NCBI GenBank assembly: GCA_963744405.1
Contig: CAVUTO010000008.1
Location: forward strand, 25,163 to 89,162
Direction: 5' to 3'
DNA: 64,000 nt
Source of the DNA: Vicinamibacterales bacterium
GTDB taxonomy: Bacteria; Acidobacteriota; Vicinamibacteria; Vicinamibacterales; JAMQPK01
Under the pieces are notes generated by a model. That model was not told the DNA's origin. It did not search any database and was given only the letters and a program-made list of their open reading frames with translations. A program made the position numbers and the translations under genes. Position 1 is the first letter of the stretch; every line of letters begins with the position of its first letter. Below, piece after piece: positions 8,467-29,529 of the stretch.

Positions 8467-8495
8467 ATGCTAAGGGCTGGCCGTGATGCTGTCAA
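8467..8495 (-). promoter_or_regulatory. sigma70-type promoter for the receptor gene
   Basis: Minus strand TTGACA-N17-TAGCAT, about 80 bp upstream of the ATG. Confidence 0.6.
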
Positions 8496-8696
8496 AGCAA
8501 AACTGGACGATCGCGATCCAACGAATCGGATCGGTGTTCACTTTACGAAACGGCGTCTCGCTGTGCGGTTTGGCAGTCTATGAGTTATAGACCTGACGGC
8601 ACCAACCTGTTTCCGGCTCCGCACGAAGGGTGTGCGCATGCCGGCGTTCGAGCAGATCCGCCACCGTCAGGTCAACTGACAACCAGGCAGGAACAG

Positions 8697-10122: not shown

Positions 10123-10150
10123 TTGTGCGTTTTACCTGGCTTGCGTGTTT
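10123..10150 (+). promoter_or_regulatory. Putative ECF sigma promoter TTGTGCG-N15-GTGTTT, copy 2
   Basis: Lies between the sigma stop codon and the kinase ATG, and matches copy 1. Confidence 0.55.
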
Positions 10151-10182
10151 TAGATTTATCGATCCCTGACGGGCGGAAGCCT

Positions 10183-13100: not shown

Positions 13101-13200
13101 GTCAGATCTCAGACACCTTCTCGCTGTGGCACCAGACGATCATCCGATCAAACGGCGATTGATCCGTACGCCAACACCGATCGTAGCCGTTCGTCACTGA
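10183..13200 (+). CDS. Membrane Ser/Thr protein kinase with extracytoplasmic TPR region
   Basis: GxGxFG, VALK, HRDVKAQN, DFG, GTPAYVAPE, SDLYSLG, a TM helix (LAGVACVLVLAAAASAFTW), then FDNRTGDPSLD and helical TPR-like repeats. Likely start MFVPQRL. Confidence 0.9.
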   Translation: MFVPQRLSDLAESVADGATPDWESAESSASDRSDRETIARLRAVASVGRFFATLSSRAPADSKAKALLAPGTMWGALRVIEHVGCGRFGDVYRAWDAALDREVALKILRANVEDAVETDIVEEGRLMARVRHPNVVTIHGAQRIDGATGLWMEFVKGRTLAAELAERGPFGAEELARVGVQLCHALSAVHSAGLVHRDVKAQNVLRDDAGRVVLGDFGTGRELEDASSAPGALAGTPAYVAPELFAGAHVTPHSDLYSLGVLLFHLATRAYPVAGRSLRDLRDAHANSKRTPLRTLRPDLSKRLVRAIEKALDADPANRFENAESMARALEACVPGAPAKRRLRVQLAGVACVLVLAAAASAFTWHVSRRTPAAIPFAERDLVLVTAFDNRTGDPSLDGALEYALERELSNSSFVNVVPRGRVEDTLQLMRKPTGTRVDLTIGREVALRDGKIRALIAGRIDRVGGVYSMSARIVHPADEATAVSVNEAAIAAPDLLRAVGRIAAGIRGQLGEALPPVDPKGAELQKVATQSMRALQLYSQAKAMTNDGFFPADQRTPRAVELLLKDALTEDPDFVWAYILLAHAVHIQGRKGEVIPYLERAVAAAVPGVDRYIAEAELDGYRGQFSTDAAERTQHFDNALAKFDAALQLQPDHFWALSCVLNITDDLGRRNRPELVRRWVGLRPNNVTALSFAARISMTAGYMADAREYATRGRAILNVPGGEPNPPGAELLRLFPSRDAWGQKNYRQALLEADVILRDPRFASGEIGSGYSLFYLYLRLGRWDRVEELASRMLPPVTGSRFLIVAASERGSRDEVRDLMTKQIAKYGEVIGGSSVLATEVLSALVDAGMLDVVRQTQAAITRSGRQDGPMLSQFVEGLLASADGRLAHAIPLFERSIQRHGAGSSVGARASLKLAEAWVTGGESARAIAVLEEAARQAPAEIFASSLSRVQDQLAQLYRRVGRTSEAEAIESDLRHLLAVAPDDHPIKRRLIRTPTPIVAVRH

Positions 13201-14429
13201 GAGACGAGCGTCGCCGGTACTATGTTGTGGTTTACCATGAACAAATTATCGGGGTCGTACTTGCGCTTGATCGCCGCCAGCCGTTCGTAGTTCTGCCCGT
13301 ACGCGGCACGCACGCGCGTGTCGCCATCGTCCGTGTCAAGGTGGTTGCTGTAGACGCCTCGGGTGAACCGCTCCGCTTCTTTCCAGAAGCTTCGCGCCCA
13401 GCCTATGTGCCGTATGTCCTCGCCCGGCGCCTGCCATTGAGGGATGATGTCGAAATCCCACTGCTCAGCGCGCGCGCCGAACGCGGTCATGTCACTCGCC
13501 GCCCTCGATGCCTTGCCGTGCATATGCAGGATCAAAATCAGCGAGTACGGCGATGTCTTGGCAGCCGCATGCTGGAGAATCACATCGAACAAGTCTTCTG
13601 ACAGCTCGGGGAAGTAACCGGACTTCCAGTAACGGCGCAAACCCGCGGGCACAGCGGAATCGAACATGGTCTGCAGATCGCGGTATGAGATCTGTCCGAT
13701 CAGGTCAGCGACGGGAGACCCGAACTTCCTGAGCGGAGCGAGCTGCTTTTCAGCCTGCTCGGCTGGACCGAACCACGACGCTATGATGGCGACGACGTCG
13801 AGGCCATCAGGCGTCGTCAGGAGGCCGGCGAAGGCAGTCAGGTCGTCCGACGCGTTGTGCGAATAGTCCCGATAGAACCGCAGGACCTCGCGGGCTTGAT
13901 CCATCGGATACAGCACCATTCCTCCCGCAAACGACGGTGCCATCGTATGCAACTGGTACTCGAACGACGTCACAACACCGAAGTTTCCACCGCCGCCGCC
14001 GAGCGCCCAGAAGAGATCCTCGTGTTGCAAGACGTTTGCGGTCAGCAGTCGACCGTCGGCAAGGACTACGTCGGCAGATATCAGGTTGTCGGACGCCAGA
14101 CCGTGGCGGGCCATCTGCCATCCCAGCCCTCCGCCGAGGGTCAAACCCGCAATCCCGGTCGATGAGACCATTCCGCCAGTCGTCGCCAGGCCAAAGGACA
14201 ACGCTTCTCGATCCAGCTCTCCCCATGTGACTCCCGCTTCTGCGCGCACCGTGCGCGCCGCGGCATCTACCCGAATGCCTCGCATCAAAGACAGATCGAT
14301 CGTCAGCCCGCCATCACAGAGCGCCAGGCCGGCGACGTTGTGGCCACCCCCACGCACAGACAGCAGCAACCCATGTTCACGCGCGAAATTTACCGCGGTG
14401 ATGACATCTGCCGCCCCGCGGCTGGAAGT
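13194..14429 (-). pseudogene. FAD-binding oxidoreductase (BBE / 6-hydroxy-D-nicotine oxidase-like), 5'-truncated
   Basis: SVRGGGHNVAG, GLTLGGGLG, GGGGNFGVVT, and BBE tail AYGQNYERLAAIKRKYDPDNLF. An in-frame stop lies just before SRGAADVITAVNFAR, so the usual N-terminal segment is missing. Confidence 0.7.
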
Positions 14430-14453
14430 TCAAATCGCACAAGCAAGACTTAC

Positions 14454-15317
14454 CTATCCCTCCCGGATGGTTCCCGAAAGCGACTCGAGAAAGCGAATCA
14501 GTGACCGTTTCTCTTCGCCGGTGAGGCGCAAAGGCCGAATATCCGGATCGAGGTATGGGTTCTTGCGGCCGCCGTCACTGTAGAACTCAACGACGTTCGC
14601 GAGTGTCGCGAGGCTACCGTCGTGCATGTAGGGCGCCGTGCGCACAACCTCACGCAATGTCGGCGTCTTGAACGTGCCATTCGCGCGTCCCTCGTCCTGT
14701 AGTCTGGAGTTCTGCCATGCAACACCGGTGTTGTGGAAGCGCTCGTCGCTGAATGTCGGCCCGACATGGCAAGCGGTGCAGTTGCCGCGACCGCGAAAGA
14801 TCTGCATGCCGAGCTGCTGTTCGTCCGTCAGCGCGCGTCGAGCGCCGCTGATGAACCGATCGTAAGGTGAGTTTCCCGACAGAATGCTCCGGACGTAGGT
14901 CGCAAGCGCCTGCGAAATCGCGGACGTGCTCAGGCCGACGCGCGCCGACGCCTCGTCGAGTGTGAGATCCATTTCGTTCGGATCCTGTATGGGTTTGAGG
15001 ACCTGTTCTTCGAGCGTCGTGATTCGGCCGTCCCAGAAGAACGAGCGACCGTAGCCTCGATTGATGAGGGCGGGCGCATGCCGCCGCCCGACGCGGCCGA
15101 AGACGCCGACGGCGAGCGGACGGCCGTCGGAGAACGCGCGGTCAGGATCATGACAGCTTGCGCATGCGACGCTGCCGCTGCGCGACAGCCGGCGATCGTT
15201 AAAGAGCTTTCTCCCGAGCGCCAGCTTTGAAGGAGTTATCGGATTGCCCTCTGGGACCGGCATGTACAGATCCAGTCCCAGAGGGATCGTGAGCATAAGG
15301 GCGAGCAACATGACCAT
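14454..15317 (-). CDS. Di-heme cytochrome c peroxidase / MauG family protein
   Basis: LGRKLFND.RLS, CASCH, FWDGR, CTACH, FKTPTLR...TAPYMHDG. Confidence 0.88.
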   Translation of the reverse strand: MVMLLALMLTIPLGLDLYMPVPEGNPITPSKLALGRKLFNDRRLSRSGSVACASCHDPDRAFSDGRPLAVGVFGRVGRRHAPALINRGYGRSFFWDGRITTLEEQVLKPIQDPNEMDLTLDEASARVGLSTSAISQALATYVRSILSGNSPYDRFISGARRALTDEQQLGMQIFRGRGNCTACHVGPTFSDERFHNTGVAWQNSRLQDEGRANGTFKTPTLREVVRTAPYMHDGSLATLANVVEFYSDGGRKNPYLDPDIRPLRLTGEEKRSLIRFLESLSGTIREG

Positions 15318-15353
15318 CAGAGTCCGTTCAGCAAGCGTCAGTCTGAACCGCTT

Positions 15354-15393
15354 CTGTCAGAGCGTGATGGGGTCAGGGTCAGGTTTCTGTCAC
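15354..15393 (-). promoter_or_regulatory. Phased GTCA box array upstream of the peroxidase
   Basis: GTCA at 15356, 15378 and 15389 (spacing 22 and 11). Confidence 0.6.
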
Positions 15394-15397
15394 GAGA

Positions 15398-17467
15398 TCA
15401 TTTCACCGTCGGGGCCGGCAGAAAGTTGTCGAGCACCCAGACCTCGCTCATGGCCTCACCGGTTGCATACGCTATTTGCCGGCCGCTCGGATGGACGCTC
15501 ACAGCTCCAAGCCCGCGGCGATGGATATCGCCCTCTATCGTCCGTGCTGGACCTCCGTCGGTCGGGACCAGCAGCAGTTCGCGTCCGTTCTTTCCTGCTG
15601 CCGTCACTATCAGGTTTCGCCCATCCGGCGCCCAACTCAGTCCCTGGACGGACCAGCCCTCGGTCAGCCGAAGCTCTCGCGATGCTCCGCCATTCGTTGA
15701 AATCAGCACTATTGCCGGGTCGTTCGGTATGCCCTCACGTCTTGCACTCGCAAATAGACTACCGTCCGGAGCGAGCCTCATCACCCGCGGGCCCGGCGCG
15801 CGCAGAATCTCACGCTGCATGCCAGAAGTCAGATCGCCCTCCACGAAGGTCGAGCCTGGGCGGCCAGGGCAGTTGGTCCCCACCCAAAAGTAGATCTTCT
15901 TTCCATCCGGCGACCATTCCGGGGCACCTGCGCAGGCACCCTCTTCGAACGGAAGCCGAGAGACGTGTCCGGTCTCAACGTCGACTTGATAGATTCCGCC
16001 CGCTCCTTTGAGATCCTGGCCCTTCACCAGCAGCGACCGTCCATCTGGCGCCCAATGCATCGGTCCAAAATAGCGCATCGCGACGTTCAGCTCGCGGGTA
16101 TCACCGGTCTCGAGCGTGCGAACAACGATGACACGATTGCGTTCGCTTCCATCTCGACCAGAGATGTACGCCAGATGCTTCCCGTCGCGGGACCACGCCG
16201 GCAGGATATTGCGTCCAACAAAGCTTCGAACGACGCTCGCGGGCGTACCCACCACTTTTCCTGCCGCCAGATCGATTGCGGCGACCTGAACGTCCTGAAC
16301 GCCCACGGTCGCCACCACAAACAACGAGCCGGATCGGCTGATCCCCAATGATGCGGGTGCGATGTCTGACTTGACGAGCACAGGCGCGCCGATGGTCCGT
16401 CCATCCGAGACAGCCACCGACCACAAGCCGGGTGCTCCGCTTCGATCGCTTGAAAAGAGGAGATGTCGCCCGTCTGGCGACCAGCCCATCATGATGTCGC
16501 GACCCGGGTGAACCACGACTGGTGTCTCGCGACTGCCGTCGACTGCCAGCACGAACACGTCGCGTTCGTTTCTTTTCGAATCGTCAAGCGTTAGATCCAT
16601 CCCGATGTATCTACCGTCTGGCGAGAGAAACAACCCGAGCGCACTGCCCCAATCAGTGGTTTTCAGAACCCGCAGAGATCTTTCCTTAACAGAAACCAAG
16701 CCGATCTGTGCGCTGCGATCTTTGCGGAACACCCGCACCAACACCAATTCGCCGTCAGGAGTCCAATCCGACGGCACGATGTAATCGATGTCCTGGCTGT
16801 CGAGAATCGTGCGTGGCTGTGTGTCGGTTGTCTGCAGACCTGTCAAGCGCAGCTCGTAGCCATCTTTTCCATTGAACCATGCGTACGCGACATGTTTTCC
16901 GTCTCGCGAAATGGCCGACCCTTGGGCATACTGGTCTCCGGCCCATCCATTGTTCGTCAGCAATCGGTCGGTCCCCGTCGCAAAGTCGTGAAGGCCAAGA
17001 TCGCCGGTCTCCCAGGCCGGGCACGTGATGTAGCGGCCGTCGAATGAGATGCCGCATTCATCCGAGGAAATATTCGGTCCGGACCATGCCTTTCGATGAG
17101 CCATTGTCTTCGCCGTGCCTGCCTGCTCTTCGCCCAGCCGCGCGCGTGCAATAGACGCAGGTTCCTTCTGATCTGCATAATCACGAACCAGCCGCTCGTA
17201 AATCCTCCGTGACTCCGCATCGCCGAGCTTCTGATAGCACTCGGCCATGCGCAGCAACGCCTGTGCGGTAATCGTCCGATTCGTATCAGCTGCCGCGACG
17301 ATTCGTTGGTACTCCTCGATCGCACCCGGAAGGTCGCCGTCAACCGTCGCTTTGTGATGCGCGCGGGCGAGCTGCTTCTCGAGCTGCGCGGCGCCCTGCT
17401 GTGCTCCCGTCGTCTGCAGCGCCGCGATGAGCAGCGCCGAAACGCACATGACAGACAGTTTGTTCAT
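15398..17467 (-). CDS. Secreted TPR + PD40/TolB-like beta-propeller protein (module 1)
   Basis: Signal peptide MNKLSVMCVSALLIAAL, TPR-like ALLRMAECYQKLGD, many (W)SPDG repeats, C-terminal EVWVLDNFLP. GGAG RBS. Confidence 0.85.
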   Translation of the reverse strand: MNKLSVMCVSALLIAALQTTGAQQGAAQLEKQLARAHHKATVDGDLPGAIEEYQRIVAAADTNRTITAQALLRMAECYQKLGDAESRRIYERLVRDYADQKEPASIARARLGEEQAGTAKTMAHRKAWSGPNISSDECGISFDGRYITCPAWETGDLGLHDFATGTDRLLTNNGWAGDQYAQGSAISRDGKHVAYAWFNGKDGYELRLTGLQTTDTQPRTILDSQDIDYIVPSDWTPDGELVLVRVFRKDRSAQIGLVSVKERSLRVLKTTDWGSALGLFLSPDGRYIGMDLTLDDSKRNERDVFVLAVDGSRETPVVVHPGRDIMMGWSPDGRHLLFSSDRSGAPGLWSVAVSDGRTIGAPVLVKSDIAPASLGISRSGSLFVVATVGVQDVQVAAIDLAAGKVVGTPASVVRSFVGRNILPAWSRDGKHLAYISGRDGSERNRVIVVRTLETGDTRELNVAMRYFGPMHWAPDGRSLLVKGQDLKGAGGIYQVDVETGHVSRLPFEEGACAGAPEWSPDGKKIYFWVGTNCPGRPGSTFVEGDLTSGMQREILRAPGPRVMRLAPDGSLFASARREGIPNDPAIVLISTNGGASRELRLTEGWSVQGLSWAPDGRNLIVTAAGKNGRELLLVPTDGGPARTIEGDIHRRGLGAVSVHPSGRQIAYATGEAMSEVWVLDNFLPAPTVK

Positions 17468-17523
17468 GGTGTCACTCCTCGCGCGAAGACTACCGGACGG
17501 GCATGCGGAATCTCGCTCCACTA

Positions 17524-17541
17524 CTGTCAGCTTTACGTCAG
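17524..17541 (-). promoter_or_regulatory. Phased GTCA box pair upstream of PD40 gene 1
   Basis: CTGTCAG...CGTCAG with GTCA at 17526 and 17537. Confidence 0.55.
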
Positions 17542-17544
17542 GTT

Positions 17545-18222
17545 TCACGCGTCGAACCTGTACCCGAGACCGCGAACGTTGCGCAGATATCGAGGCTCCG
17601 CCGCGTCCGGCTCGAGCTTCTTGCGAAGGCTGCCGATGTGGTTGTCGACCACGCGATCGGAGACGAACGTATTCGGACCCCAGGCGTCCGTAATCAACTG
17701 CTGCCGGGTGAGAATGCGCCCTCGGGCGCGGAGGAATGCCTGCAACAGGCGGAATTCGAGCGGCGTCAGCGGCGTGATCTCTTCTCCGCGTCTGATCTCC
17801 GCGCGATCGAAATCGACCTCGACGTCACCGACATGCACCAGGGGCGCTACAGCGCCGGCCTGGCTTCGACGTAAGAGAGCCGCGATTCGCGCTCTCAACT
17901 CGCGCGCGCTGAAGGGCTTCGTCACATAGTCGTCAGCGCCGGCTTCGAGACCCAGCACTTTCTCGGCTTCCTGGGCCCGCGCGGTGAGCATCAGAATAGG
18001 CGTCCTGATGCCGTTGCGGCGCAGCTCGCGGCACACCTCGAATCCGTCTTTTCCAGGAAGCATCACGTCGAGCAGGATGGCGTCGTAGGGCTGCTCCCGC
18101 GCTTTCCTCGCGGCGGCAAGGCCGTCGCCGATGACCTCGACCTGGTATCCCTCGAGTGTCAGATCGTCCTCGAGCGCCAGGGCAATACCGGGCTCGTCTT
18201 CGACGACGAGAATTTTCGTCAC
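17545..18222 (-). CDS. OmpR/PhoB-family response regulator (module 1)
   Basis: KILVVEDE, LLDVMLPGKDG, GADDYVTKPF, winged helix VVDNHIGSLRKKLE...RGLGYRF. Confidence 0.95.
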   Translation of the reverse strand: MTKILVVEDEPGIALALEDDLTLEGYQVEVIGDGLAAARKAREQPYDAILLDVMLPGKDGFEVCRELRRNGIRTPILMLTARAQEAEKVLGLEAGADDYVTKPFSARELRARIAALLRRSQAGAVAPLVHVGDVEVDFDRAEIRRGEEITPLTPLEFRLLQAFLRARGRILTRQQLITDAWGPNTFVSDRVVDNHIGSLRKKLEPDAAEPRYLRNVRGLGYRFDA

Positions 18223-20144
18223 GAAGACACTCCAGCCTCGTGTCTCGTAGTGCCGACCTTCAGGTCGGCCGTTTCCAGCGGAAGCACCAGCGTAAAGACG
18301 CTGCCACGCTGGATCTCGCTCTCCAGCCGGATTTCCCCGCCATGCGCGAGAGCGATTTCCTGCACCATCGACAGTCCGACGCCGGTCCCCTTGATGTTCG
18401 CCTCAATGGCCGAACGTCCGCGGACAAACTTGCGGAAGATCGCCTGCTGCTCCGAGGGCGGAATGCCGACGCCGCGATCGGCGACGCATATCGCCGCGTG
18501 ATTGTTTTCCGTCTTCCAGTGCACCCGCACCGTCGAATCATTCGGCGAGTACTTGAGGGCGTTGTCGATCAGATTTCGTAGCGCGAGCGCCAGCGCGCCG
18601 GCATCGCCTCGCAATCGAACCTCCGCGTCGGGCCCGTTGATCTCGATGTGTCTGCCGGCTTCGCGCGCATGCGGCTCGATCTCATGAACGACATTTCGCA
18701 CGAGCTCGCCCGCATCGAGGCCCGCGAACTGGTAGCGCACGGCGCCCGCTTCCATACGCCCGAAGTTGAGCAGCGTCTCGACAAGGCGTTGAAGGCGGGC
18801 GGCCTCGCTCGCGATGACGCGGTAATACTTACGCCGCCGCTCTTCGGACGGGAGCCGATCTGTTTCCAGCATCTCGGCCATCTGCCGAACCGTGGTGAGC
18901 GGCGAGCGGAACTCGTGCGAGACGGCAGCAACGAAATCTGACTGCAGGCGCGCCACTTCGGCCTCACGGCGAATCGCACGGGCGATGAAGTACGACGCAC
19001 CCCACACGAACACCAGCATGGCCGCCATCATCGCGAGCAGAACCGTTCGATTGCTGGCGGCATCTCCGAGAGGCTGCGCAGCCGTGCTCCATGTGTGCAC
19101 GGTCCAGGGATATTCCGAATTGCCCAGAATGCGCGCCGCCGACTGCGCTGGTGCCGCTGCGTCTCCCACGATCGCCTCACCGCCGGCGTCCGCGAGCCGC
19201 CAGGTAAGTCCTTCTGGCGCAGAAGCCTTGAAAAACGTGCCCGCAAATGCCGACAGCAGGACGGTCCGATCGCCGCTGGACCGCCACAAGACAAGCACGC
19301 TTCCTCGATCCGTCTTCAACACTCGGTGGCCGCGTGCCGGCAAACGGGCGTTCCCATTGGTGAACGTTTCGTAGAGCGCTTCCGCGAGATGCCAGGAATC
19401 CGGCCGTGGCGACACACCGAGCTCGTCGCGATGAAACTCTGCAAGGCCGCGCGTGATCGGCCATCTTCCGCGATCGAGCTGGGCAACCAGCTCAAAGGCC
19501 ACCCGCGCCGCATTTTCGCGATCTCCCATGGCCAGCAATGTCGCGCGTTGCCCCTCGAGCCCCGCAAGTTCGGCCGGTAGGCCCTCTACCCATATGCCGC
19601 CGGACGAAGCCAGCGCGCGATATGCCTCTTGCGCTCCCGAGAAGTCTCTCGACTTGCGCAACACTCGGCCCAGCCGCAGCAACGCGCCCGCGCGAACATG
19701 AGGGTCTGCATCGCGCGTCAACCTTCGATATCGCTCCGCCACTCCCGGGTTTGCTGGCTCGCCGAACTCAATTGCTTCTATCCTGGAAAACTCGGCTGAA
19801 GGGGCTGCGCTTCGCGGCGAGATGGGCACGTACGGCAGGCCGTTCGGTGGCATCGTCCATGTTTTGTCCCCATCAATCGCAACGAGGACGGCGCCGTCGA
19901 GCGGCTGCAGTGGCGCTGCTGGATCTGAAAGCCATCCGGCAAGCCGTTCGCCTGCCTCTGCGAGTCTGCCGCGTATGCCGGCGGCGATGGCTTCGGCGCG
20001 GTTTTCGAGCTGCTCCCGTTCGCGCTGCCTGTCGATAGTGCGCTGTTGATCCAGCAGCCGCCAGCCAGCCCAGCAGATCGCTACCGTGACGACGAGCGTC
20101 GTCGCCGCGAGCACGGCGAGCAGGCGATGCGGCGGGCGGAACAC
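18219..20144 (-). CDS. Sensor histidine kinase with periplasmic TPR-like domain (module 1)
   Basis: Two TM helices, H-box SHEFRSPL, NLIDNALKYS, DRGVGI, GTGVGL. Confidence 0.93.
   Translation of the reverse strand: MFRPPHRLLAVLAATTLVVTVAICWAGWRLLDQQRTIDRQREREQLENRAEAIAAGIRGRLAEAGERLAGWLSDPAAPLQPLDGAVLVAIDGDKTWTMPPNGLPYVPISPRSAAPSAEFSRIEAIEFGEPANPGVAERYRRLTRDADPHVRAGALLRLGRVLRKSRDFSGAQEAYRALASSGGIWVEGLPAELAGLEGQRATLLAMGDRENAARVAFELVAQLDRGRWPITRGLAEFHRDELGVSPRPDSWHLAEALYETFTNGNARLPARGHRVLKTDRGSVLVLWRSSGDRTVLLSAFAGTFFKASAPEGLTWRLADAGGEAIVGDAAAPAQSAARILGNSEYPWTVHTWSTAAQPLGDAASNRTVLLAMMAAMLVFVWGASYFIARAIRREAEVARLQSDFVAAVSHEFRSPLTTVRQMAEMLETDRLPSEERRRKYYRVIASEAARLQRLVETLLNFGRMEAGAVRYQFAGLDAGELVRNVVHEIEPHAREAGRHIEINGPDAEVRLRGDAGALALALRNLIDNALKYSPNDSTVRVHWKTENNHAAICVADRGVGIPPSEQQAIFRKFVRGRSAIEANIKGTGVGLSMVQEIALAHGGEIRLESEIQRGSVFTLVLPLETADLKVGTTRHEAGVSS
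18247..18269. repeat. Single GTAG REP inside the 3' end of the kinase gene
   Basis: GTAGTGCCGACCTTCAGGTCGGC, encoding ADLKVGTT. Confidence 0.7.
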
Positions 20145-20180
20145 GGGCCACCGTATCTTAGTTGGCTCCTGTGTCCGCCG

Positions 20181-20220
20181 GCGTCAGAGAAGTGTCAGCT
20201 TTGTGTCAGGCCGGCGGTCA
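20181..20220 (-). promoter_or_regulatory. Phased GTCA box array upstream of kinase 1
   Basis: GTCA at 20183, 20194, 20205 and 20217. Confidence 0.65.
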
Positions 20221-20274
20221 CGGCCCAGTTCTTGTGTGCGGATCGTCCTGCGAGACGATGGTAGGATTTGCGAT

Positions 20275-20832
20275 ATGGGTCGCAGCCGCGAGATGTCGGT
20301 GGAGGACCTGTATCAGGTGGGCGAGGACCGGAAGGCCGAGCTGGTCGACGGCAGACTGGTCGTCATGACTCCAGGCGGCGGGTTGCACGGATACGCCTGC
20401 GGCCTCATTTATGCCAGCCTTCTTGACCACGCACGGCGCATGAAGCGCGGCATTGCCCTGCCGGACAACGTCGGCTTCATCGTCAACCTGCCGAATCGTC
20501 GCTCGTTCAGTCCGGACGTGACGTTCTGGACTGGCGGACCGCTGACGTCGAAGTTTGTCGACGGCGCGCCGATCTTCGCGGTTGAGGTGCGCACCGAAAG
20601 CGACCACGGATCGACAAGCGACCTGGCGTTTGCGGCGAAACGCCTCGACTACTTCGCCGCAGGCACGCTGGTCGTGTGGGACGTGGACATCCTGCAAAGG
20701 CAGGTTGTCGATGTCTATCGTTCCACGGCTCCAACTGTGCCGACGACCTATAGCCGGGGAACATATGCGGAAGCCGAACCCGCGGTCCCCGGCTGGTCTA
20801 TGCCGGTCGATGATTTGTTTCCGCCTACTTAG
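20275..20832 (+). CDS. Uma2 family (PD-(D/E)XK-like) endonuclease
   Basis: KAELVDGRLVVMTP, SPDV, APIFAVEVR, KRLDYFAAGTLVVWDVD, EPAVPGW. Confidence 0.88.
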   Translation: MGRSREMSVEDLYQVGEDRKAELVDGRLVVMTPGGGLHGYACGLIYASLLDHARRMKRGIALPDNVGFIVNLPNRRSFSPDVTFWTGGPLTSKFVDGAPIFAVEVRTESDHGSTSDLAFAAKRLDYFAAGTLVVWDVDILQRQVVDVYRSTAPTVPTTYSRGTYAEAEPAVPGWSMPVDDLFPPT

Positions 20833-21099
20833 GCGGCAGCAAGGCCATCAGCCCTTCTGCCAGAGTGGCGCGCCAATGTAACTGGTCATGACCACCTCCG
20901 GTTTCCCGATACGTGAGGACGTAGCCCTCGGCGCGCAACACGTCTCGAAAGTGGCGGTTTCCAATACTGATTGCTCTCTTGAAGCGCAATCTCATCGATG
21001 GGCCGCTGCGCCGACGGGCTCGTACAGTCCCGTCTCGATGTGAAAGCGGATAGGCAGGTGAGGAGACTCTGCGTACATCGCGGCAAGCGAGTTGGGCTC
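20825..21099 (-). pseudogene. C-terminal remnant of an enterochelin-esterase-like alpha/beta hydrolase
   Basis: Hand translation gives PNSLAAMYAESPHLPIRFHIETGLYE, a frameshift, then NRHFRDVLRAEGYVLTYRETGGGHDQLHWRATLAEGLMALL. No N-terminal part is present. Confidence 0.7.
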
Positions 21100-21106
21100 A
21101 GATCTG

Positions 21107-21136
21107 GACGGCCGGCGGTAACAACCGCCGGCCGTC
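21107..21136 (-). terminator. GC-rich hairpin downstream of PD40 gene 2
   Basis: GACGGCCGGCGG-taacaa-CCGCCGGCCGTC. Confidence 0.6.
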
Positions 21137-21146
21137 GCACAGTTCG

Positions 21147-23230
21147 CTAGCGCGGACGCGGCAACAAATTCTTAATCGCCCAGACTTCGCCCTTTGTCTG
21201 CGTCCCCGTGAATGCGAGGTGACGGCCGTCGGGCGAGAGTTCGGCCGTTGTGATCGATTCGAACGTGATGTCCAGTTTTCGCGGCTCGCCTCCGGCGGCG
21301 GGAAACGCCCAGACCCGCCGCATGGAATCCGATTCCTCGACAACACCTAACACGTACTTGCCGTCTCGCGTCCAGAGTCCTGTCTGCGGTGTGGGACGCG
21401 CAGAGTTGCCACGGAATACGATGTGCGGCGCGCCGCCGGCTGTGGGCACAACGACCAGGTGCCGGTCGCCTTTATCGCTGACGTTCACCATGAAAGACAA
21501 ACGGTCTCCCTCAGGTGAAATGGCTAATCCGAAAAGCCCGACGCCAAGCGACTCGGCATGATAGAGCTCAATTTCGTGCCCCGAAACGACATCTCTCTTG
21601 ATGAGGCGTAACAGCCGGCCTGCAGGAGCTCCCGTATCGCGCCGTGTGAAATATAGGAATCGACCATCGGGGGACATCGCGAAGCGCGGATACAGTTTGC
21701 CAAGATCGTCTTGGAACAATGGTCTCACGGCGCCGGTTTCAACGTCGACGTTGTGGATGGTCGTCACGCGCTTCGTATAATCTGCCTCGGGGACGAGGAG
21801 CGATCGGCTGTCCGGAAGCCACTTCGCTCCGAAAGCTCCGGCAGCAAACCCATCCACGAGCTTGAATGGGAGGGTCCGCTCGGTACCATCTGCCAACGAC
21901 CGAATGATAATGGAGCGCTTCAAACGATCCGCGCCGCGGACAAACAGTATGTAGCGTCCGTCTGGCGACCACACTGGAGCGATGTTTGAGCCGACGAACT
22001 GATCGGACAGGCGTTTCGGCTTCGTAAGCACCTCGAGCGTGTCAGGACTCACGTCGGTCACATACACATCCTGAGTCACATTTCTGGTGCCGTAGAAGTA
22101 CGAGCCATCGCGTGTAAAGCCCATACTTAGTATGTTTCCAACGCCCGGTCGTACGATCGCCGGCTCGCCTTGAGGTTTTCCGTCAACGACATCCATAAAC
22201 CATAGATCCTGGTTTCCGGATCTATCGCTGAGAAACGTGACGCCTCGGCCATCGGGCGTCCACACCGGCGATCTATCGTCGGCTGTTCCCCGTACCAGCG
22301 GCGACTCTCGCGAGCCGTCCACGGCTATCGCATAGATGCCGGTGTCGGTGTTCGATCCAACCTTTGAGATTGCATACACCAGGAATCGTCCGTCAGGTGA
22401 GAATGCGCCGAGCATCGGTCCTCGCCACTCCGTAGATTTCAATGTAGTCACGGACCCGCCGGCTGCGTCTATAAGCACAATGCGCCAGGTTCCGTCGCCT
22501 GTGTCGCGCACAACCGCAGCCAGCCGTCTCCCATCGGGCGACCACCGGGCTGATAAGTGGCGTGCGGACCCAGCCGCGCGATGACTCGCGGCGGCCCACC
22601 GTCGACGCCGACCGTCCGAAGCGAAGTTGTGCGCTCGCCGAAGAACATGTAGGCGATTTGCTTTCCGTCAGGCGATATTGCCGGGTCATAGGCATATCCG
22701 TCCGCGCCGGTGGCATTCGTGAGACGCTGGTTTCGCCCGGTCGTCAGGTCCCGGATGGCAACGTTGCCGGTGTCCGAAGAGTTCCAGTCGATGAACGTCA
22801 GGAACTTGCCGTCGGCCGATGGGCTGCCTTCCACGTTCACACCATCCCCGACCCAGACCTGTCGCGCGACAACGTGCGTATCCACTGGTTTGTCCGCCCC
22901 AACAAGGTCATTCAGTCGACTGCGCGCTTCGGCCGCCTGTGGCTGCTCGCCATAATCGCGGATGATGCGCTGGTAGACTGCCCTCGCCTCGGCATCGCCA
23001 AGCTTCTGATAGCACTCGGCCACGCGGAGGAGAGCCCTCACAGCCGCGGCGCGATCGCCGCGCGTGCGATCTGCCGATACTGCTCGATCGCCTTCCTGCA
23101 GATCGCCTTCGACCTCTTCCGCGTGCTGCGCAGCTTTGAACTGCGCCTCGATCGACCGCGGCGCCTGCGCAAGGACGAGCGTCGTCGCGGTCATGCCGAA
23201 TGCCAGCGTGAGCGTGATGAGTCGTGTCAT
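21147..23230 (-). CDS. Secreted TPR + PD40/TolB-like beta-propeller protein (module 2), frameshifted
   Basis: ORFs 22469-23230 and 21147-22511 are consecutive parts: signal peptide, ALLRVAECYQKLGDAEAR, SPDG repeats, EVWAIKNLLP. Paralogue of 15398-17467. Confidence 0.85.
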
Positions 23231-23260
23231 AAATCCTCCAGCGACGAAGGTAGACGCCGC

Positions 23261-23300
23261 TCGTCAGCCCTCAATCGATCCACTGTCACCTGTCTGTCAC
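23261..23300 (-). promoter_or_regulatory. Phased GTCA box array upstream of PD40 gene 2
   Basis: GTCA at 23263, 23285 and 23296 (spacing 22 and 11); CTGTCACCTGTCTGTCAC. Confidence 0.65.
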
Positions 23301-23978
23301 GCCTTCGCCGTCGAACCGGTAACCCAGCCCGCGCAGCGCAATGAGGTAACGCGGACGTTCAGGATCTGGCTCGATTTTCTTGCGCAGGTTCGTCACCTGG
23401 TTGTCGACGACGCGATCGGTCACGTGCGTGTCTGTGCCCCAGACCTCATCGAGCAGTTGCGTGCGCGTGAGAAGACGTCCTTCGCGCTTCACGAATGCCG
23501 AGAGCAGCTTGAATTCGAGCGCGGACAACTCGATCCGCTTGCCGGCGCGGCGCAACTCGCATCGCACGAAGTCGAGCTCGGCATCGCCGAAGCGATACAC
23601 GTCGGGCATTTGCCGAGCCGCCCGCCGCAGATGCGCTTTCACGCGCGCTCGCAGCTCGCGGGCGCTGTAAGGCTTGGTCACGTAATCGTCCGCGCCGACT
23701 TCGAAGCCGAGCACCTTTTCGGCTTCCTGTGCCCGCGCGGTCAGCAGCACGATTGGCGTATCGATGCCGGCGGCCCGCAGCTCTCTGCAAATCTCGAAGC
23801 CGTCCTTCCCGGGCAGCATCACGTCGAGCAGAATCAGGTCGAAGCTTCCGGATCTCCCTCGCTGCGCGGCAGTATCCCCATCGGACGCAAGCTCGGTCTC
23901 ATAGCCTTCGCGCCGAAGGTCGTCCTCCAGTGCCATGGCGATGCTCGGCTCGTCCTCGACGATGAGAATTTTGCTCAT
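23286..23978 (-). CDS. OmpR/PhoB-family response regulator (module 2)
   Basis: MSKILIVEDEPSIAMALEDDL...GADDYVTKPY...VVDNQVTNLRKKIEPD; close paralogue of 17545-18222. Confidence 0.93.
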   Translation of the reverse strand: MSKILIVEDEPSIAMALEDDLRREGYETELASDGDTAAQRGRSGSFDLILLDVMLPGKDGFEICRELRAAGIDTPIVLLTARAQEAEKVLGFEVGADDYVTKPYSARELRARVKAHLRRAARQMPDVYRFGDAELDFVRCELRRAGKRIELSALEFKLLSAFVKREGRLLTRTQLLDEVWGTDTHVTDRVVDNQVTNLRKKIEPDPERPRYLIALRGLGYRFDGEGVTDR

Positions 23979-25931
23979 GTGTGGGTCGGCTGCAGCGGCA
24001 GCAACGTCGTGAAGCGGCTGCCCGCGCCCAGGCTCGCTCGTCAGCTCGAGCGCGTCCGCCATGCGCGCGAACGATTTCCGCGGCCAGCGTCAGCCCGATG
24101 CCCGTGCCTTTGACATTCATCGTTCGTGGCAGCAGCGCCGCGCGTGAACTTGCGGAAGATTTCCTCGGTCTCCGCTTTCGACACGCCAGGGCCTTCGTCG
24201 TCCACGGAAATGCCGACGAAAGGGCCTTCAGGTTTGACCGAAACGGTTACGCTGCCTGAGGCGCGGCGAGTACTTGATGGCGTTGTCGATGAGATTTCTC
24301 AAAGCCACGGCCAGCGCACTCCGATCGATGTGAATCATCAGCGGCGCCGCATTCGACCCGGCGGCGAGACGTCAAATGCAGCCGGCGAGCGTCCTCTGCG
24401 CGGTGCTCTCGAAACTCTCGCACCGTGTCGGTGACGAACGACACGGCATCGATTTCGACCAGCTCGTACGTGCGGCGTCCCGCCTCGATGCGCCCGAAAT
24501 CGAGCAGGCTCTCGACCATCGCGTGCAGCCGCCGGCTCTCCTTCGCGAGCACACGGTGGTACTGCGCGACGCGCCCTGGCGGCGTCTGTCCATCCTCCAG
24601 CAGCTCGGTAAGATGGCACATCGCCGTCAGTGGTGTCCTGAACTCGTGAGAAACCGCGGCGACGAAATCTGACTGAAGTCGAGCGACGCGCGAGCTCTCG
24701 ATTCACCGCTCTGACCACGAAGTAGCTCGATGCGGCAATGACGAGCACCATCAGGCCACAGGCTCGCCGCGAACAGATTTCGGCGGGACGAGAACGTCAG
24801 CGCGACGGCATCCGGCTCGCCCACGGCAAGCTGAATCGTCCAGGGCAGGCCGGTTTCACGAAACGTCTTTGTGAGGGCGATGTCAGCGGCAGGCACGCTT
24901 CCCCACACCTGGCGTCCCGTCGAATCCTCGAGCGACCAGTGAAGAGGGGAGCGCCCTACGGTCTGGCCGCACGCGAGCCACGAAGATGTCGAGATCGGCA
25001 ACCACGGCAGCTGTGCGAGATCCGGTTCGGCGCCAGACGGCAATGAACGCGCCTGACGCGCCGGTCCACTCCGCTCGTCCAGCCGGCGTGGCCTGCAAAT
25101 CGGGCCAGACGGCTCCGACGGCTTCGGCGCGAGAGAGGAGCGGATTGATGGTCGCGGTCATCGCGCCGGACCGCGTCGCCGCCTCTCGATAGAACTCGAA
25201 CGTCGGTCGATCAATGGCAAATCGTCCTCGAGTCGAGCGCTGCGGCGAGATGAGCCGCTTCGCCGAGCAGCAGCCGCGTGATTGCCGAGCGCTTCGTGCA
25301 GCACGATCGCGCTCACGCCTGGCGACGAGCTCGGATGGCGAGCCCGCAACGGTGACACCACCCATGAGCGGCCAGCGAGCCGTACACCTCGAGCGCTTCA
25401 ACTGGGCGGCGCTGTTTGCGCAGCACACGCGCGAGCCGCATCAAAGCGGCCGCGCGAATCGTGGGAACTCCCGTAGTCTGCGGCACGCCTGTAAGCTGCG
25501 GCCGCGTTCGGGAGATCGTCGCGTTGAAACTCCAGAGCTTCTGCGTCTGCAAAGGTTTGCGGCGTGATGATCTCGCTCGAGCGAACTTGCGGCTGGTACG
25601 GAAGACGCGACGCCGTGCTGTTCGACGATGGCATCCCCCTCAAAGAATGAGGAGCGTCGCCTGGGCAGGCGGGCTCGGGTGAACGTCCGTCAGCGGCGTG
25701 CTGAGCGGCCGTCTCCCATGCGGCGAGCTCTCGTTCCAACTCCTGTGTAACGAGGCTGGCGCCGTTCTCCAACCTGTCGCGCAAACGCTGCACCTCGAGA
25801 GCGCGATCCTGTTCCAGCACGCGCCAGCCGAGCCAGCCAAGGGCAATCAGCGGAATGCCGCTCAACAGCACGAACAGCGCCAGCAGCTTTTTGCGGGGAC
25901 GCCAGTCGGTATTTCCACTTAGGAGCGTCAT
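23975..25931 (-). CDS. Sensor histidine kinase (module 2), multiple frameshifts
   Basis: Fragments: N-terminal TM LLALFVLLSGIPLIALGWLGW, AALMRLARVLRK, ELVARRER, VSHEFRTPL, VESLLDFGRIEAG, NVKGTGIGL. Confidence 0.82.
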
Positions 25932-25942
25932 TCTACGCGCGG

Positions 25943-25982
25943 CTGTCAGCCGTGAATCTGCCGTCTGTCACGATTGTGTCAG
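25943..25982 (-). promoter_or_regulatory. Phased GTCA box array upstream of kinase 2
   Basis: GTCA at 25945, 25967 and 25978 (spacing 22 and 11). Confidence 0.65.
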
Positions 25983-26006
25983 TGATGACCTTGCGAGGCC
26001 TGGGTG

Positions 26007-26041
26007 AAAGAAAAAGGGCCGGAATCTGGTGATTCCGGCCC
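26007..26041 (-). terminator. Rho-independent terminator after the second receptor gene
   Basis: GGGCCGGAATC-tggt-GATTCCGGCCC with an adjacent A-run. Confidence 0.8.
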
Positions 26042-26091
26042 GTGAGATCGACTTGTCGCCAAAGCGCGGCGACCGGCTAGTCACGTTCTCT

Positions 26092-29000
26092 CTAGAACAC
26101 GTACTTCAACCCAAGCTGGACCTGGCGAGAATCCATCCTGGTGCTGGTGATGACGCCGTAGTTGGGGTTGTTGTTGTTGCTGTTGTTGAGCTGCGAGCCA
26201 GGCTGACCCCAGATCGCCGCGTTCGGCAGGTTGAACACTTCGATTCGGAATTCCAGGCGATCGTCGCGGATCGCGAAGTTCTTGTTGAACGACATGTCGA
26301 AGCTCTTGATGCCGGGCCCGACGACCGTGTTGCGCTTCACGGTGCCATAGCGGAACCCCGTTCCGTACTCCGGATTTCGGTCGACGAATGCGGCCGTATT
26401 GAACCAGCGTTCCCGGGTTGGATCGTCTAGCTGCCAATCCGGGCTGCCGGGCGCGGGGTCTGGGTAACATCCGCCGCCGCCATTCTGCACGGTGCCTGTG
26501 CTGCAGTTCAGCGTGAACGGGAACCCATCCTGGAACGTCAGGATGCCGCCGAGCTGCCAGCCGCCGAGCACATAGTCGAGGGCGGTATTGGCGTTCATGT
26601 ACTTCCGGTCGCGGCCGAACGGCAGCTCATAAATCCACGACGTCGTCGAGCGCTTGCGGAAATCGAACGCCGATGGCCCGGTCTCGAGCGCGAGGTCGTA
26701 GTTGTTCGACGGCGTCAGCGGATCGCCCACGCTCGTGCGAACGCCGCTGCCATTGTCGGTCGATTTCCCGTACGAGAACGAGCTCAGGAAGCTGAGGCCG
26801 TGCGAGAACCTCTTCTGTGCCTTGAGGTAGAGCGCGTTGTATTCCGAGCTGCTCGGCGCGTTCATAACCTGCATCCCCCCCAGGTCAGGAAACGGCCGTG
26901 AGCGGTTGACGTCCGCCAGACTGCTTGGCTCGCTGTTGTTGTAGGTCTGCAGGCGCCGCAGGTGCACGCCCCTGGATCCGAAGTAGGTCACTTCGGCCGA
27001 TATCGACCCGGGCAACTCCCTCTGGAATCCGAGCGACCACTGCTCGATGTAGGACGAAGGCACGTCGTACTCGGCAGCAAGGATGAACGTCGGCGATCCC
27101 GTGCGTGCGAATGGCTGCTCGAAGCTGAGGTTCGGGCGGAATGTCGCGGCCGGTTCGCTGTTGCGGATCGTGAACGGCGCGTTGCGCACGGTGTCGAACA
27201 CCGCGTTCCCGATATCGCGCACGTAATAGATGCCGCCGCCGGCTCGAACAACGGTCTTGGGGTCCACCGACCAGGCCAGGCCGACCCGCGGGGCGACATC
27301 GTTGTAGTCGGGCTTGTAGGCGCCCCGGCCGAAACGGCCATCGCGCACATATGGAATGGTCCCGAGACTGAACGGCGGGTTGCCCTCATAGGGATCGCCG
27401 GTGCCCGTCCGTACGAAGACCGGTGCGCGGCTGTTGTCCCAGACGTAGTCGATATTGACGATCTTGTCGTCGACGTCGGTGAACGGCTGGTCGTATTCCC
27501 ACCGCAGCCCGAAGTCGACCGTCACGTTCGGTGTCACCTTCCAGTTGTCCTGGACATAAACGGCGTAGTAATTCGACCGGAAGTCCGCGATGGGTGCGCC
27601 GACCTGCGACTCTGAGTTGTTCATGTGTCCCAGCAGGAAGTCCGCGAATGCCGCGCCGCCCCGCTGCGCCGCGGGCAGGAGCGGCTGTTGCGTGTAGCGG
27701 CCGTCGAAATTGAACCGGCCGCGTGTGACGACGCCGCCGATTTGATCGTACAGGACGCGACGCAGCTCGCCGCCGAACTTCACCGAATGGTTGCCGAGAA
27801 TCCACGAGAAGTTGTCGACGAACTGAATAGTCTTGTCATCGTTGATGAACGGGGCGTCGCTCTCCTCGCCGAGTCCGGAGAGGGCGGTGACGCCGATGTT
27901 CGGCACGCCCCAGTAGAGCGGGTTGTCGCTCGGGATGTTGATGCCGAGCTCCTTGACGACGTTCTCCACATTCGCGCGCGGAGAGATATGAGCGTTCTTC
28001 AACTGCCCGTAGCCAATCCGCATGTCGTTGAGCTTGTTCGTGCCAATCGTCTTTGTGTTGCCCAGCACCATCTGCTGTACGTCGGTATCGGTGTTGCTGC
28101 CCATGTCCGGAATGGCGAAGGGATCGTACCCGAGCTCGTGAGAGATGCTGTGGCGGAAGAACCAATTCATCGTCGCGCTCTGGGTGTAATCGATGCGATA
28201 GGTGTACTGGTCCGAGTTGACTTCTCGCGCCTCGCTGTTCACGAAGTTGGCGCCGGTCCGTTCCTGGTCGGGAGTCGGGTAGTACCTGAGAAGCTTCTGC
28301 GAGGCCTGATGAATGCGGTTGGCCGGAATCCTGTTGCCAGGGAACGCGGTCGGGGCGACAACGACGTTCCCGGCCGCATCGAAGACGCGCGTTGCCGGAT
28401 CGTAGATGACGACCGGGTTCCCATTCGTGTCGCGCAGGTTCGAGAAATCGCCGGATTTCCAGGCGGTCAGCGGAAGCGATGCGTTCGACGTGAGCGACTT
28501 CTCTTCGCGCAGCCCTTCCCAATTGAACATGAAGAAGAGCTTGTTGCTGACGACCGGACCGCCGATGGTCGCCCCGAACTGGTTCCGCGAAAACGGCGCA
28601 ATGGGCTTGTCTTTCGGGTCGAAGTAGTTCTTCGAGTCCATCTTGGCGTTCCGCACGAACTCGAACACGGTTCCGTGGAAGGCGTTCGTGCCCGACTTGG
28701 TGCTCGCGTTGATCTGCGCGACGGCGCGTCCGAACTCGGCGCCGAAGATGCCCGACTCGACTTTGAATTCCTCGAGCGCGTCGACTGAGGGCAGCAGCAT
28801 ATAGCTGTTGAAGTTGAGGTCGGTGTTCTCGACGCCGTCGAGCGAGTAGTGGTTGTAGTGGATGCGCTGGCCGGCGACGTTCAGCGAGAAGCTGTTCCGC
28901 TGGCCGCCCATGCGCTGCTGTCCCTGTGCCGACGCCGGACCGTTCGTCGTAGCGCCCGGAATCAGCGACGCCAGCTGCAGGTAGTTGCGGCCGTTCAGCG

Positions 29001-29433: not shown

Positions 29434-29529
29434 GGCAAACCTCCAAAAATTTGGAGCGCGAGAACCGAGGGAAGTGTGAACTAGTTTCATAGGTGATCGA
29501 CTGGGATGTCAACATGAACGATGCGGCCT

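Follow-up and report, generated by a model that had tools for sequence, protein, structure and literature searches.

A recurrent kinase–regulator–propeller module in Vicinamibacterales with a predicted docking helix and module-matched operator-like repeats

What brings a sensor kinase, an OmpR-type response regulator and a secreted TPR–PD40 propeller protein together in the same order, twice in tandem, and do the three products act as one system? We studied this question in a window of 64,000 nucleotides (nt) from a Vicinamibacterales bacterium (Acidobacteriota; GenBank assembly GCA_963744405.1, contig CAVUTO010000008.1, positions 25,163 to 89,162), the whole stretch of DNA analyzed here, and give all coordinates within it. 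The tandem order described in an earlier note on this DNA was found at both places (Table 1). The order is more than chance: a third module, with an intact kinase and its propeller gene in pieces, lies on another contig (C19) of the same genome, and the arrangement recurs widely elsewhere. We consider it somewhat probable that each module is a self-contained three-component envelope signalling unit, the secreted partner docking on the kinase and the regulator acting on direct repeats.

The kinase and regulator of module 1 are a two-component pair by domain content and position: HisKA (62.8 bits), HATPase_c (91), Response_reg (101.5) and Trans_reg_C (87) all scored above their cut-offs, and the genes adjoin, with the regulator start overlapping the kinase stop by 4 nt. 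The kinase consists of a first transmembrane helix, an outside domain of about 340 amino acids (aa) and a second transmembrane helix leading straight into HisKA and HATPase_c, with no match to HAMP. The partner has a signal helix, an N-terminal helix and short TPR region (aa 22–115, the TPR itself at aa 46–115) and an all-beta body of about 560 aa; its start and signal peptide were judged by eye, and no lipobox was seen in the same way. Pfam recognized only TPR_6, PD40 and other propeller families in it, and precomputed annotations of its relatives include PF26549 and PF26550. Its model has a predicted local distance difference test (pLDDT) score of 90.5, and Foldseek matches of the beta body included two-propeller proteins (2ymu, E 1.5e-21), tricorn, Aip1 and TolB. 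Between the two modules, the regulators are close (61.8% identity over 225 aa) and the kinases (30–35%) and propeller proteins (32–36%) more diverged, as the earlier note had described.

We examined how well the gene order is kept. For the sensor part of the kinase, a search gave at least 144 relatives (90% clusters); of the 120 listed, nearly all are kinases of 500–668 aa. The sensor was detected in 18 of 401 sampled genomes of the phylum and 17 of 228 genera. The 20 neighbourhoods contained 29 regulator anchors; a kinase catalytic domain was found upstream of all 29, and a propeller gene downstream of all 28 with enough DNA, the 29th anchor lying 204 nt from a contig end. A sensor-domain profile recovered 11 of 17 kinases missed by tblastn. 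Several genomes carry tandem arrays, with three modules in one (G269, each with a di-heme gene), four in another (G366) and at least six in a third (G280), and the closest relative found is a Vicinamibacterales metagenome-assembled genome (MAG) with two tandem modules. Beyond a di-heme enzyme, some Ser/Thr kinases, outer-membrane barrels and mobile-element genes, no flanking gene was recurrent among 63 flanking open reading frames (ORFs) at 19 loci.

Searches with the propeller protein, in which two candidates were scored per genome, gave matches in 33 of the 401 genomes at E ≤ 1e-30. The regulator lay directly upstream in 28 of 33 matches that included the TPR; two others had kinase and regulator about 3 kb upstream, one had half a regulator, one a kinase fragment only, and one was not examined. 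Among the propeller-only matches examined, 10 of 11 lacked an upstream regulator (including L064, L073, L081 and L083; G, C and L numbers are our handles for genomes, contigs and loci). At the remaining one, L074 (G069:C7, about 6670–8928), a weak match to the winged-helix C terminus of a regulator lies just upstream of a propeller body contained in an 818-aa open frame; the locus may encode a one-component membrane-bound regulator fused to the same propellers. In named genome records, a collection partly overlapping the 401-genome sample, the regulator was directly upstream of 37 of 39 TPR-bearing copies versus 5 of 34 copies without detectable TPR, and a kinase was present at all 38 regulator-linked copies with enough DNA. 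A further TPR-bearing copy with an upstream regulator, from Phycisphaerae (L141), had less than 1,300 nt upstream and stands outside the 39-copy tally. Linked copies also occur in MAGs labelled Bacteroidales, Rikenellaceae, Aminicenantes and Eubacteriales, labels that need care. The earlier proposal of a conserved unit thus gained support, and its suggested refutation, kinase homologues not consistently beside TPR–PD40 genes, did not materialize, because the adjacency was consistent across neighbourhoods.

The regions between the genes revealed a second conserved feature. Within 100 nt around the regulator stop in 28 modules, self-similarity peaked at an offset of 11 (z = 7.4) and again at 22 (z = 4.8), and no other offset from 3 to 30 exceeded |z| = 3.7 in these regions. 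The top 5-mer repeated at 11 bp was TGACA, found in 8 of 28 regions against a maximum of 3 in 20 shuffles. We built a position weight matrix (PWM) of the 11-bp unit, with consensus CTTGACA, and found 22 of the 28 regions to exceed the 95th percentile of shuffles in leave-one-out scoring. In front of 17 of 22 kinase genes, none of them in the training set, the matrix found its motif on the coding strand as well. Scanning both strands of the whole window gave six sites of at least 13 bits, of which five are the module promoters, all on the coding strand, and three of these five boxes had never been in the training of the matrix. Across the 5.15-Mb genome, 22 sites reached 15 bits, including the five module promoters. 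The highest score in the genome, 19.3 bits, belongs to a site outside the modules (G000:C4:69962, minus strand), within an oligopeptide permease gene that is part of an Opp/Dpp-type operon; it may be a chance match or an internal promoter.

The boxes are specific to their modules. The kinase-side and propeller-side boxes of the same module shared on average 15.08 of 22 bases, compared with 11.30 for different modules and 10.69 for different modules within one genome; for the 13 modules with two good boxes, none of 20,000 permutations reached the observed within-module match. In the window, the box of propeller gene 1 begins 3 nt after the regulator 1 stop and is followed 28 nt later by TAGTCT, the same distance at which TAAGAT follows the kinase 1 box dimer; the di-heme box has another TCTGACAGAAG unit 22 nt on, and the box of propeller gene 2 overlaps the last codons of regulator 2. 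More widely, a TAnnnT element followed the box at phase 5–6 (mod 11) in 14 of 22 propeller-side regions, and on the kinase side phases 4–6 accounted for 14 of 18 phase scores from 17 regions. We read this spacing as compatible with two to four units in phase, the last of which ends immediately before a –10-like element. PhoB sites likewise consist of tandem repeats phased with the –10 element. We infer from the repeats that the boxes are putative operators bound by the cognate regulator. The earlier idea that the propeller gene is a target of the regulator therefore receives indirect support, from OmpR/PhoB-type repeats before the propeller gene and the same module-specific variant before the kinase gene.

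The relationship of the partner to the kinase was studied with structure prediction. No Pfam family matched aa 25–375 of kinase 1, and no TPR was found in the kinase by Pfam. The sensor model (pLDDT 90.3, from a 58-sequence alignment) runs from a long stalk helix through two strands and eight helices (sensor-piece residues 84–234) to a seven-strand sheet. The helical part aligned in VIA-align with FLU-TPR (Z 12.7, root-mean-square deviation 2.8, 107 aa) and the YbgF TPR (Z 12.4, 117 aa), Z values in a range that the tool calls common for helical repeats and based on structure only. The surrounding frame aligned with the CHASE domain of AHK4 (Z 11.7, 177 aa), KinD (11.6) and the dCache domain of PctA (11.4), each Cache/CHASE alignment covering about 175 residues and spanning model residues 1–5 to 326–331; Foldseek placed CqsR (E 2e-3) and the YbgF TPR domain first. 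The Cache-like frame has no Pfam match, and the Atlas cluster of the sensor contains no Pfam family. We thus predict a Cache-like fold for the sensor, into which a TPR domain is inserted, and the earlier label of a TPR-sensor kinase holds for the predicted structure, which matches TPR domains, and not at the level of Pfam profiles.

Using sensor-piece residues 1–328 and partner residues 22–689 as input, we obtained predicted complexes with an interaction prediction score from aligned errors (ipSAE) of 0.67, 0.65 and 0.68, against 0.00 in all three controls. Of 157 solved complexes, 116 reach the mark used for ipSAE, as do 2 of 215 mismatched pairs; these counts are only roughly valid here because our own alignments were used. 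The runs had at least 75% of their contacts in common, with partner pLDDT at or above 79. In the predicted interface, the TPR insert of the kinase faces partner residues 26–46 and 79–82, which comprise the helix that opens the mature protein, the TVDGDL turn and the QKLG of a conserved ECYQKLGD stretch. The model therefore predicts that the first mature helix of the partner docks in the groove of the kinase TPR. This N-terminal tag is itself widespread: we found 1,403 cluster representatives (50% identity) at E ≤ 1e-10 and 4,044 at E ≤ 0.001. In the best 150 of the 4,044 matches it lies at about residues 3 to 131, full-size proteins being about 660–760 aa; no other bodies were found behind the tag among these 150, and shorter ones may be fragments.

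If the tag contacts the kinase, the two might be expected to vary together. We compared pairwise identities among 46 non-identical intact modules with Mantel correlations. Partner aa 22–60 tracked the kinase TPR insert (r = 0.73) and the regulator (r = 0.76), as did aa 61–118 (0.64 and 0.61), and the four propeller segments reached only 0.14 to 0.33. An earlier comparison of 17 modules with the whole partner had been weak (kinase sensor r = 0.36, 159/5,000 permutations; regulator r = 0.18, 911/5,000); the reading now differs because the partner was split into parts on the larger sample. At the residue level, the 25 best predicted contact pairs had a normalized mutual information of 0.220, against 0.155 for all TPR-by-N-terminus pairs and 0.162 for the same residues otherwise paired, and 2 of 10,000 random sets reached the value of the contact pairs.

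The same division appears, as a natural mosaic, when module 1 is compared with the closest relative. Module 1 resembles module B of that MAG in its kinase (74% identity, with 33.5% to module A), regulator (93%, with 57%) and di-heme protein (85%, with no counterpart in module A), and the resemblance extends into aa 22–60 of the partner (82%, with 34%). From there it reverses: aa 61–118 are 64% identical to module B and 77% to module A, aa 119–400 are 44% and 73%, and aa 401–689 are 39% and 62%. Given this split, we conclude that the tag was kept with its kinase as the propeller body was exchanged. Together, the complex prediction, the tracking of the N terminus and the mosaic argue for the propeller protein being an accessory component, as the earlier note proposed.

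We propose that the N-terminal helix of the partner docks in the groove of the kinase TPR insert and the partner would thereby modulate the kinase, with the propeller body as the variable part that may meet a signal or substrate. The phosphorylated OmpR/PhoB-type regulator would bind the tandem 11-bp direct repeats, with core TGACA and phased with a –10-like element, and could drive the kinase–regulator operon, the propeller gene and, in module 1, the di-heme gene. With repeats before its gene and a predicted contact with the kinase, the partner would feed back on the very circuit that produces it. Paralogous modules, having their own box variants and docking helices, may be insulated from each other, and propeller bodies appear to have been exchanged between them. 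The effect on the kinase could be in either direction, with the partner acting as an inhibitor in the manner of CpxP or as a ligand-loaded activator in the manner of TorT or LuxP, and we lean toward a ligand-presenting co-receptor.

Several observations weigh against this proposal. The complex score expresses the confidence of the model, and conservation is barely enriched at the interface (4 of 32 kinase residues, 2.7 expected, by hand count). Once the regulator is accounted for, a modest partial Mantel correlation is left, 0.30 with the TPR insert and 0.25 with the catalytic domain as well, so that it is not specific to the insert. Linkage alone could produce the same tracking and mosaic without any docking constraint because the N terminus of the partner adjoins the regulator gene, and the conserved ECYQKLGD stretch could be a preferred crossover site; as the modules are related, the permutation counts also overstate significance. 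A sigma-70 consensus scan of positions 14000–26400 gave one promoter-like site, with a shuffle mean of 2.2, and none at the boxes. No output beyond the module itself was identified, only the best of the 17 outside sites having been looked up. Finally, module 2 and the module on C19 are broken in this assembly.

In a plain two-component system, the kinase would sense alone through its Cache/TPR domain, and the propeller protein, by itself or together with the di-heme enzyme, would be output only (for example a periplasmic binder, scavenger or chaperone) and never contact the kinase. This would explain the boxes before the propeller and di-heme genes. It would also account for the failure of the propeller body to track the kinase (r 0.14–0.33) and for the TPR-less propeller relatives without an adjoining kinase or regulator (29 of 34, plus L064, L073, L081 and L083). 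We nevertheless regard it as unlikely: the complex prediction passes with all controls at 0.00, the N-terminal 100 residues track kinase and regulator (r 0.61–0.76), the contact pairs are richer in mutual information, and it is the TPR-bearing form with which the regulator is linked (37/39 versus 5/34). Still less probable, in our assessment, is a redox or metal module in which the di-heme enzyme oxidatively modifies the propeller protein and the kinase and regulator control the pair upon oxidant or metal. The di-heme gene has its own box; among solved structures its product is nearest to 6e1c (E 3.9e-38), and among family models to MbnH and MauG, with Tyr for the peroxidase Met; and it follows the propeller gene in 7 of 29 and 8 of 42 modules as well as in 4 of 31 regulator-less copies and at L067. 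As the gene is missing from most modules (22/29 and 34/42), however, such chemistry leaves the core unit unexplained; in either family the score falls short of the curated cut-off, and no modified residue could be predicted.

The partner might instead report on envelope assembly rather than an outside ligand, as a TolB- or CpoB-like protein in a cell-wall or outer-membrane homeostasis system of the MtrAB–LpqB or Tol–Pal kind. Its TPR_6 and PD40 domains, the match of the kinase insert to the YbgF TPR (Z 12.4) and the presence of MtrA and MtrB among the best NCBIfam models are consistent with this, and the MtrA motif GTKAYS, in repeats 5 nt apart, also gives an 11-bp period (PMC10714768, from extracts). 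All three scores are below their cut-offs, however (MtrA 205/300, MtrB 157/450, TolB 125/343), Pfam detected no GerMN or LpqB propeller domain in the partner, and many diverged copies per genome with a patchy spread (33 of 401 genomes) are unlike a housekeeping system, making a homeostatic role quite improbable. That the genome holds no working unit at all, but decaying remnants or an adjacency without functional meaning, we find scarcely credible. Breaks in kinase 2, in propeller gene 2, in the propeller gene on C19 and in modules of G280 and G055 speak for this reading. Against it stand the undamaged module 1 with its complete set of boxes and a gene order preserved in many families; moreover, genes are broken assembly-wide, so that the breaks may be errors.

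Table 1. Features of the two modules and their surroundings in the window (all on the minus strand; sequences of the boxes as 11-bp units)
Feature	Coordinates	Strand	Basis and details
Module 1, kinase	20144..18219	minus	641 aa; HisKA + HATPase_c (Pfam)
Module 1, response regulator, OmpR/PhoB family	18222..17545	minus	REC + Trans_reg_C (Pfam)
Module 1, partner (TPR_6 + PD40 protein), ORF	17548..15398	minus	Pfam
Module 1, secreted partner from likely start	17467..15398	minus	ATG after AGGAG; signal-peptide-like N terminus
Module 1, di-heme gene (fourth gene)	15317..14454	minus	CCP_MauG (Pfam); two CxxCH motifs
Module 2, same gene order	25931..21147	minus	ORFs, Pfam, translated comparison
Module 2, kinase, across at least 8 frame changes	25931..24055	minus	Three-frame translation; tblastn frame path
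Module 2, response regulator, intact	23978..23286	minus	Pfam, NCBIfam
Module 2, propeller gene (TPR + PD40), one frame change	23230..21147	minus	ORFs, Pfam
Box upstream of kinase 1	20189..20210	minus	CCTGACACAAA GCTGACACTTC, then TCTGAC unit; PWM 17.4
Box upstream of propeller gene 1	17521..17542	minus	CCTGACGTAAA GCTGACAGTAG; PWM 18.5 bits
Box upstream of di-heme gene	15373..15394	minus	CGTGACAGAAA CCTGACCCTGA; PWM 18.5 bits; outside training
Box upstream of kinase 2	25962..25983	minus	ACTGACACAAT CGTGACAGACG; PWM 17.5 bits; outside training
Box upstream of propeller gene 2	23280..23301	minus	CGTGACAGACA GGTGACAGTGG; PWM 17.0 bits
Terminator-like hairpin	26041..26016	minus	11 pairs, 8 G–C, T-rich tail; TTTTTCTTTC

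The claim of a duplicated system accordingly stands for the gene order and fails for the intactness of module 2, in which the kinase and the propeller gene are frame-broken and the regulator is whole. In kinase 2 the H, N, G1 and G2 boxes are still readable, and every detected frame change shifts the same way, cycling from –1 through –2 to –3. No homopolymer of four or more bases was present at the nine junction intervals, and homopolymer errors were rejected as the cause of these breaks. Two ORFs, 23230..22469 and 22511..21147, make up the split propeller gene 2, whose reading frame shifts between 22604 and 22544. The two tandem kinases of the closest relative are each in one frame. The assembly is of the metagenome type, with 31 contigs, 82.6% completeness and no listed sequencing run, and broken genes are common in it, since at least 13 of about 51 OMP_b-brl_4 loci are split between neighbouring frames or contain internal stops and about 24 are whole (hand count); a PSCyt2/PSD1 (DUF1549/DUF1553) gene at 788–3673 (minus strand), apparently spread over three ORFs, is a further sign of frame breaks. 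The assembly is thus either error-prone or rich in pseudogenes, and the breaks of module 2 may reflect gene decay or assembly error.

The fourth gene of module 1 had been labelled a di-heme peroxidase, and our comparisons replace this with an MbnH/MauG-like enzyme. The protein scored 205.7 against the MbnH model TIGR04039 (cut-off 362.85) and 205.1 bits against the MauG model TIGR03791 (cut-off 443.85), both below cut-off, and only 25.6 of 150 against CytoC_perox. The nearest solved structure is a "Di-heme enzyme" (6e1c), which we take to be MbnH. In the alignment with the peroxidase 3o5c, the Met of "NTMAD", presumably the ligand of the high-potential heme in classical peroxidases, stands opposite a Tyr that is shared with 6e1c. 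A classical cytochrome c peroxidase was rejected for this Tyr and the low CytoC_perox score, despite the two CxxCH motifs.

The di-heme gene follows the propeller gene in a minority of modules, at the frequencies given above (the 8/42 coming from the named records), and its occurrence beside propeller genes also without an upstream regulator points to a separate functional tie between the two proteins. Such regulator-less pairs were seen at L067 (G190:C1), L059 (G069:C9), L103, L113, L149 and L167, the pair at L059 following a kinase sensor fragment only. MauG modifies pre-methylamine dehydrogenase and MbnH modifies MbnP, and hydrazine synthase pairs a di-heme subunit resembling cytochrome c peroxidase with propeller subunits. 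The gene here resembles the MbnH–MbnP and MauG cases in encoding a CCP_MauG-family di-heme enzyme with Tyr at the peroxidase Met position beside the gene of a periplasmic partner; it differs in its neighbour, a PD40 propeller protein rather than MbnP or a dehydrogenase subunit, and the known MbnH/MauG partners are not adjacent. Beside these two, hydrazine synthase (PMC12607021, from extracts) is a further comparison for the fourth gene.

Does the unit belong to a system already described? Full-text searches, with most subscription journals outside their coverage, gave no paper on a kinase–regulator pair with a TPR–PD40 partner. The statement of the earlier note that no described system has this architecture holds for the literature searched, with the reservation that MtrAB–LpqB is a described three-component system with a propeller lipoprotein. 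In this system of Actinobacteria (Hoskisson and Hutchings 2006, cited in PMC2732212 and PMC10714768), an OmpR-type regulator and a kinase are encoded next to a lipoprotein with a beta-propeller, for which a modulating effect on the kinase has been proposed. It is the closest precedent: an OmpR-family regulator, a membrane kinase and an exported propeller partner are common to both, and the 5-nt spacing of the MtrA hexamer repeats gives the same 11-bp period. Its gene order is regulator–kinase–LpqB, LpqB is a lipoprotein with GerMN and a single GMAD1 (PF10647) propeller, and the system is single-copy and near-universal in its phylum. The modules here have the order kinase–regulator–propeller, a signal-peptide protein with TPR and a two-propeller-like body, a TPR insert in the kinase sensor, and a patchy, multi-copy distribution with tandem arrays.

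The present unit is therefore alike in logic and not a member, because the gene order differs, GerMN and the LpqB propeller were not found, and the curated models are not reached. Regulator 1 scored 218 of 296 bits against PhoB and 204.8 of 300 against MtrA (NF040689), with RegX3, KdpE and MtrA as its PDB matches, and the kinase 157.4 against MtrB (NF040691; cut-off 450), the MtrB and PhoR matches covering the catalytic part only. The partner reached 125.4 against TolB (TIGR02800; cut-off 343.15) through its propeller repeats alone, short of the TolB equivalog. The regulators and kinases score below every curated NCBIfam equivalog.

Other systems share parts of the logic. CpxP is a small helical protein and an inhibitor, unlike the 690-aa partner with its propellers, in which Pfam found no CpxP-type domain. 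In TorT–TorS and LuxP–LuxQ, a periplasmic binding protein informs the outside domain of the kinase. Hybrid two-component sensors of Bacteroides contain Reg_prop propellers inside the sensor and have many paralogues per genome; they resemble the modules in using beta-propellers as periplasmic input domains, but there the propellers belong to the kinase polypeptide and to another repeat family, whereas here they form a separate, exchangeable protein. The likeness to CpxAR–CpxP of E. coli, drawn in the earlier note, lies in a periplasmic accessory protein that binds the kinase sensor and whose gene is in the regulon of the system's own regulator, giving feedback (PMC4160245, from extracts). A separate periplasmic protein carrying ligand or state to the kinase is likewise found in GltB–GtrS (PMC7927077) and QseG–QseE (PMC6075780, PMC12691602), again as given in extracts of these papers. 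The folds of these two and of TorT–TorS and LuxP–LuxQ differ throughout from those of the modules. To our knowledge, none of the four docks through a TPR groove of the kinase or forms tandem paralogous arrays.

The modules add a new form to a known kind, two-component systems that include an accessory protein in the periplasm, and come with a docking model and matched operator-like boxes. Acidobacteriota are abundant in soil, and the sensing of their surroundings is little known. If the docking model holds, it names residues on both proteins, and sensors could be rewired by swapping the tag or the propellers; the tag family is large, and the kinase sensor is covered by no Pfam family. The matched operator variants define a compact, mostly local candidate regulon, and the repeated association of MbnH/MauG-like enzymes with the propeller protein may point to a new class of substrates for them. 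A more far-reaching idea, possible though rather doubtful in our eyes, is that the modules form an expandable family of plug-in receptors: the tag would dock a double-propeller receptor in the TPR socket of one kinase, recombination at the conserved TPR stretch would shift propeller bodies from module to module and so rewire sensing, operator variants would separate the circuits, and the MauG-like enzyme would install a redox or metal site in some. If true, this would be a natural modular route to new sensory inputs of two-component systems.

The surroundings of the modules contain further genes. Between the two modules and divergent from kinase 1 lies a gene of the Uma2 family (putative restriction endonuclease fold; 20086–20832, plus strand, with the start probably near 20272). 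The spacers of tandem modules elsewhere contain a PIN-domain gene (L047) and a DUF4143/AAA gene (L045), and transposase genes occur beside or inside modules at L052 and L056. On the other side of module 1, 84 nt after the di-heme gene and on the same strand, an FAD-linked oxidase (FAD_binding_4 and BBE; 13194–14369, minus strand) is encoded; its FAD domain match begins at profile position 27, so that the N terminus may be cut. At 9535–13200 (plus strand), a gene for an extracytoplasmic function sigma factor immediately precedes one whose product is a Ser/Thr protein kinase of 1,025 aa carrying TPR repeats. Kinases of the Ser/Thr type lie next to modules at L043 (with a TIR domain), L051 and L060 too, possibly by chance in a kinase-rich phylum. 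The window also holds three large barrel genes of the CarboxypepD_reg and OMP_b-brl_4 type, at 4767–8387, 26092–29490 and 32209–35610, all on the minus strand. The terminator-like hairpin of Table 1 ends the upstream outer-membrane barrel gene immediately before module 2.

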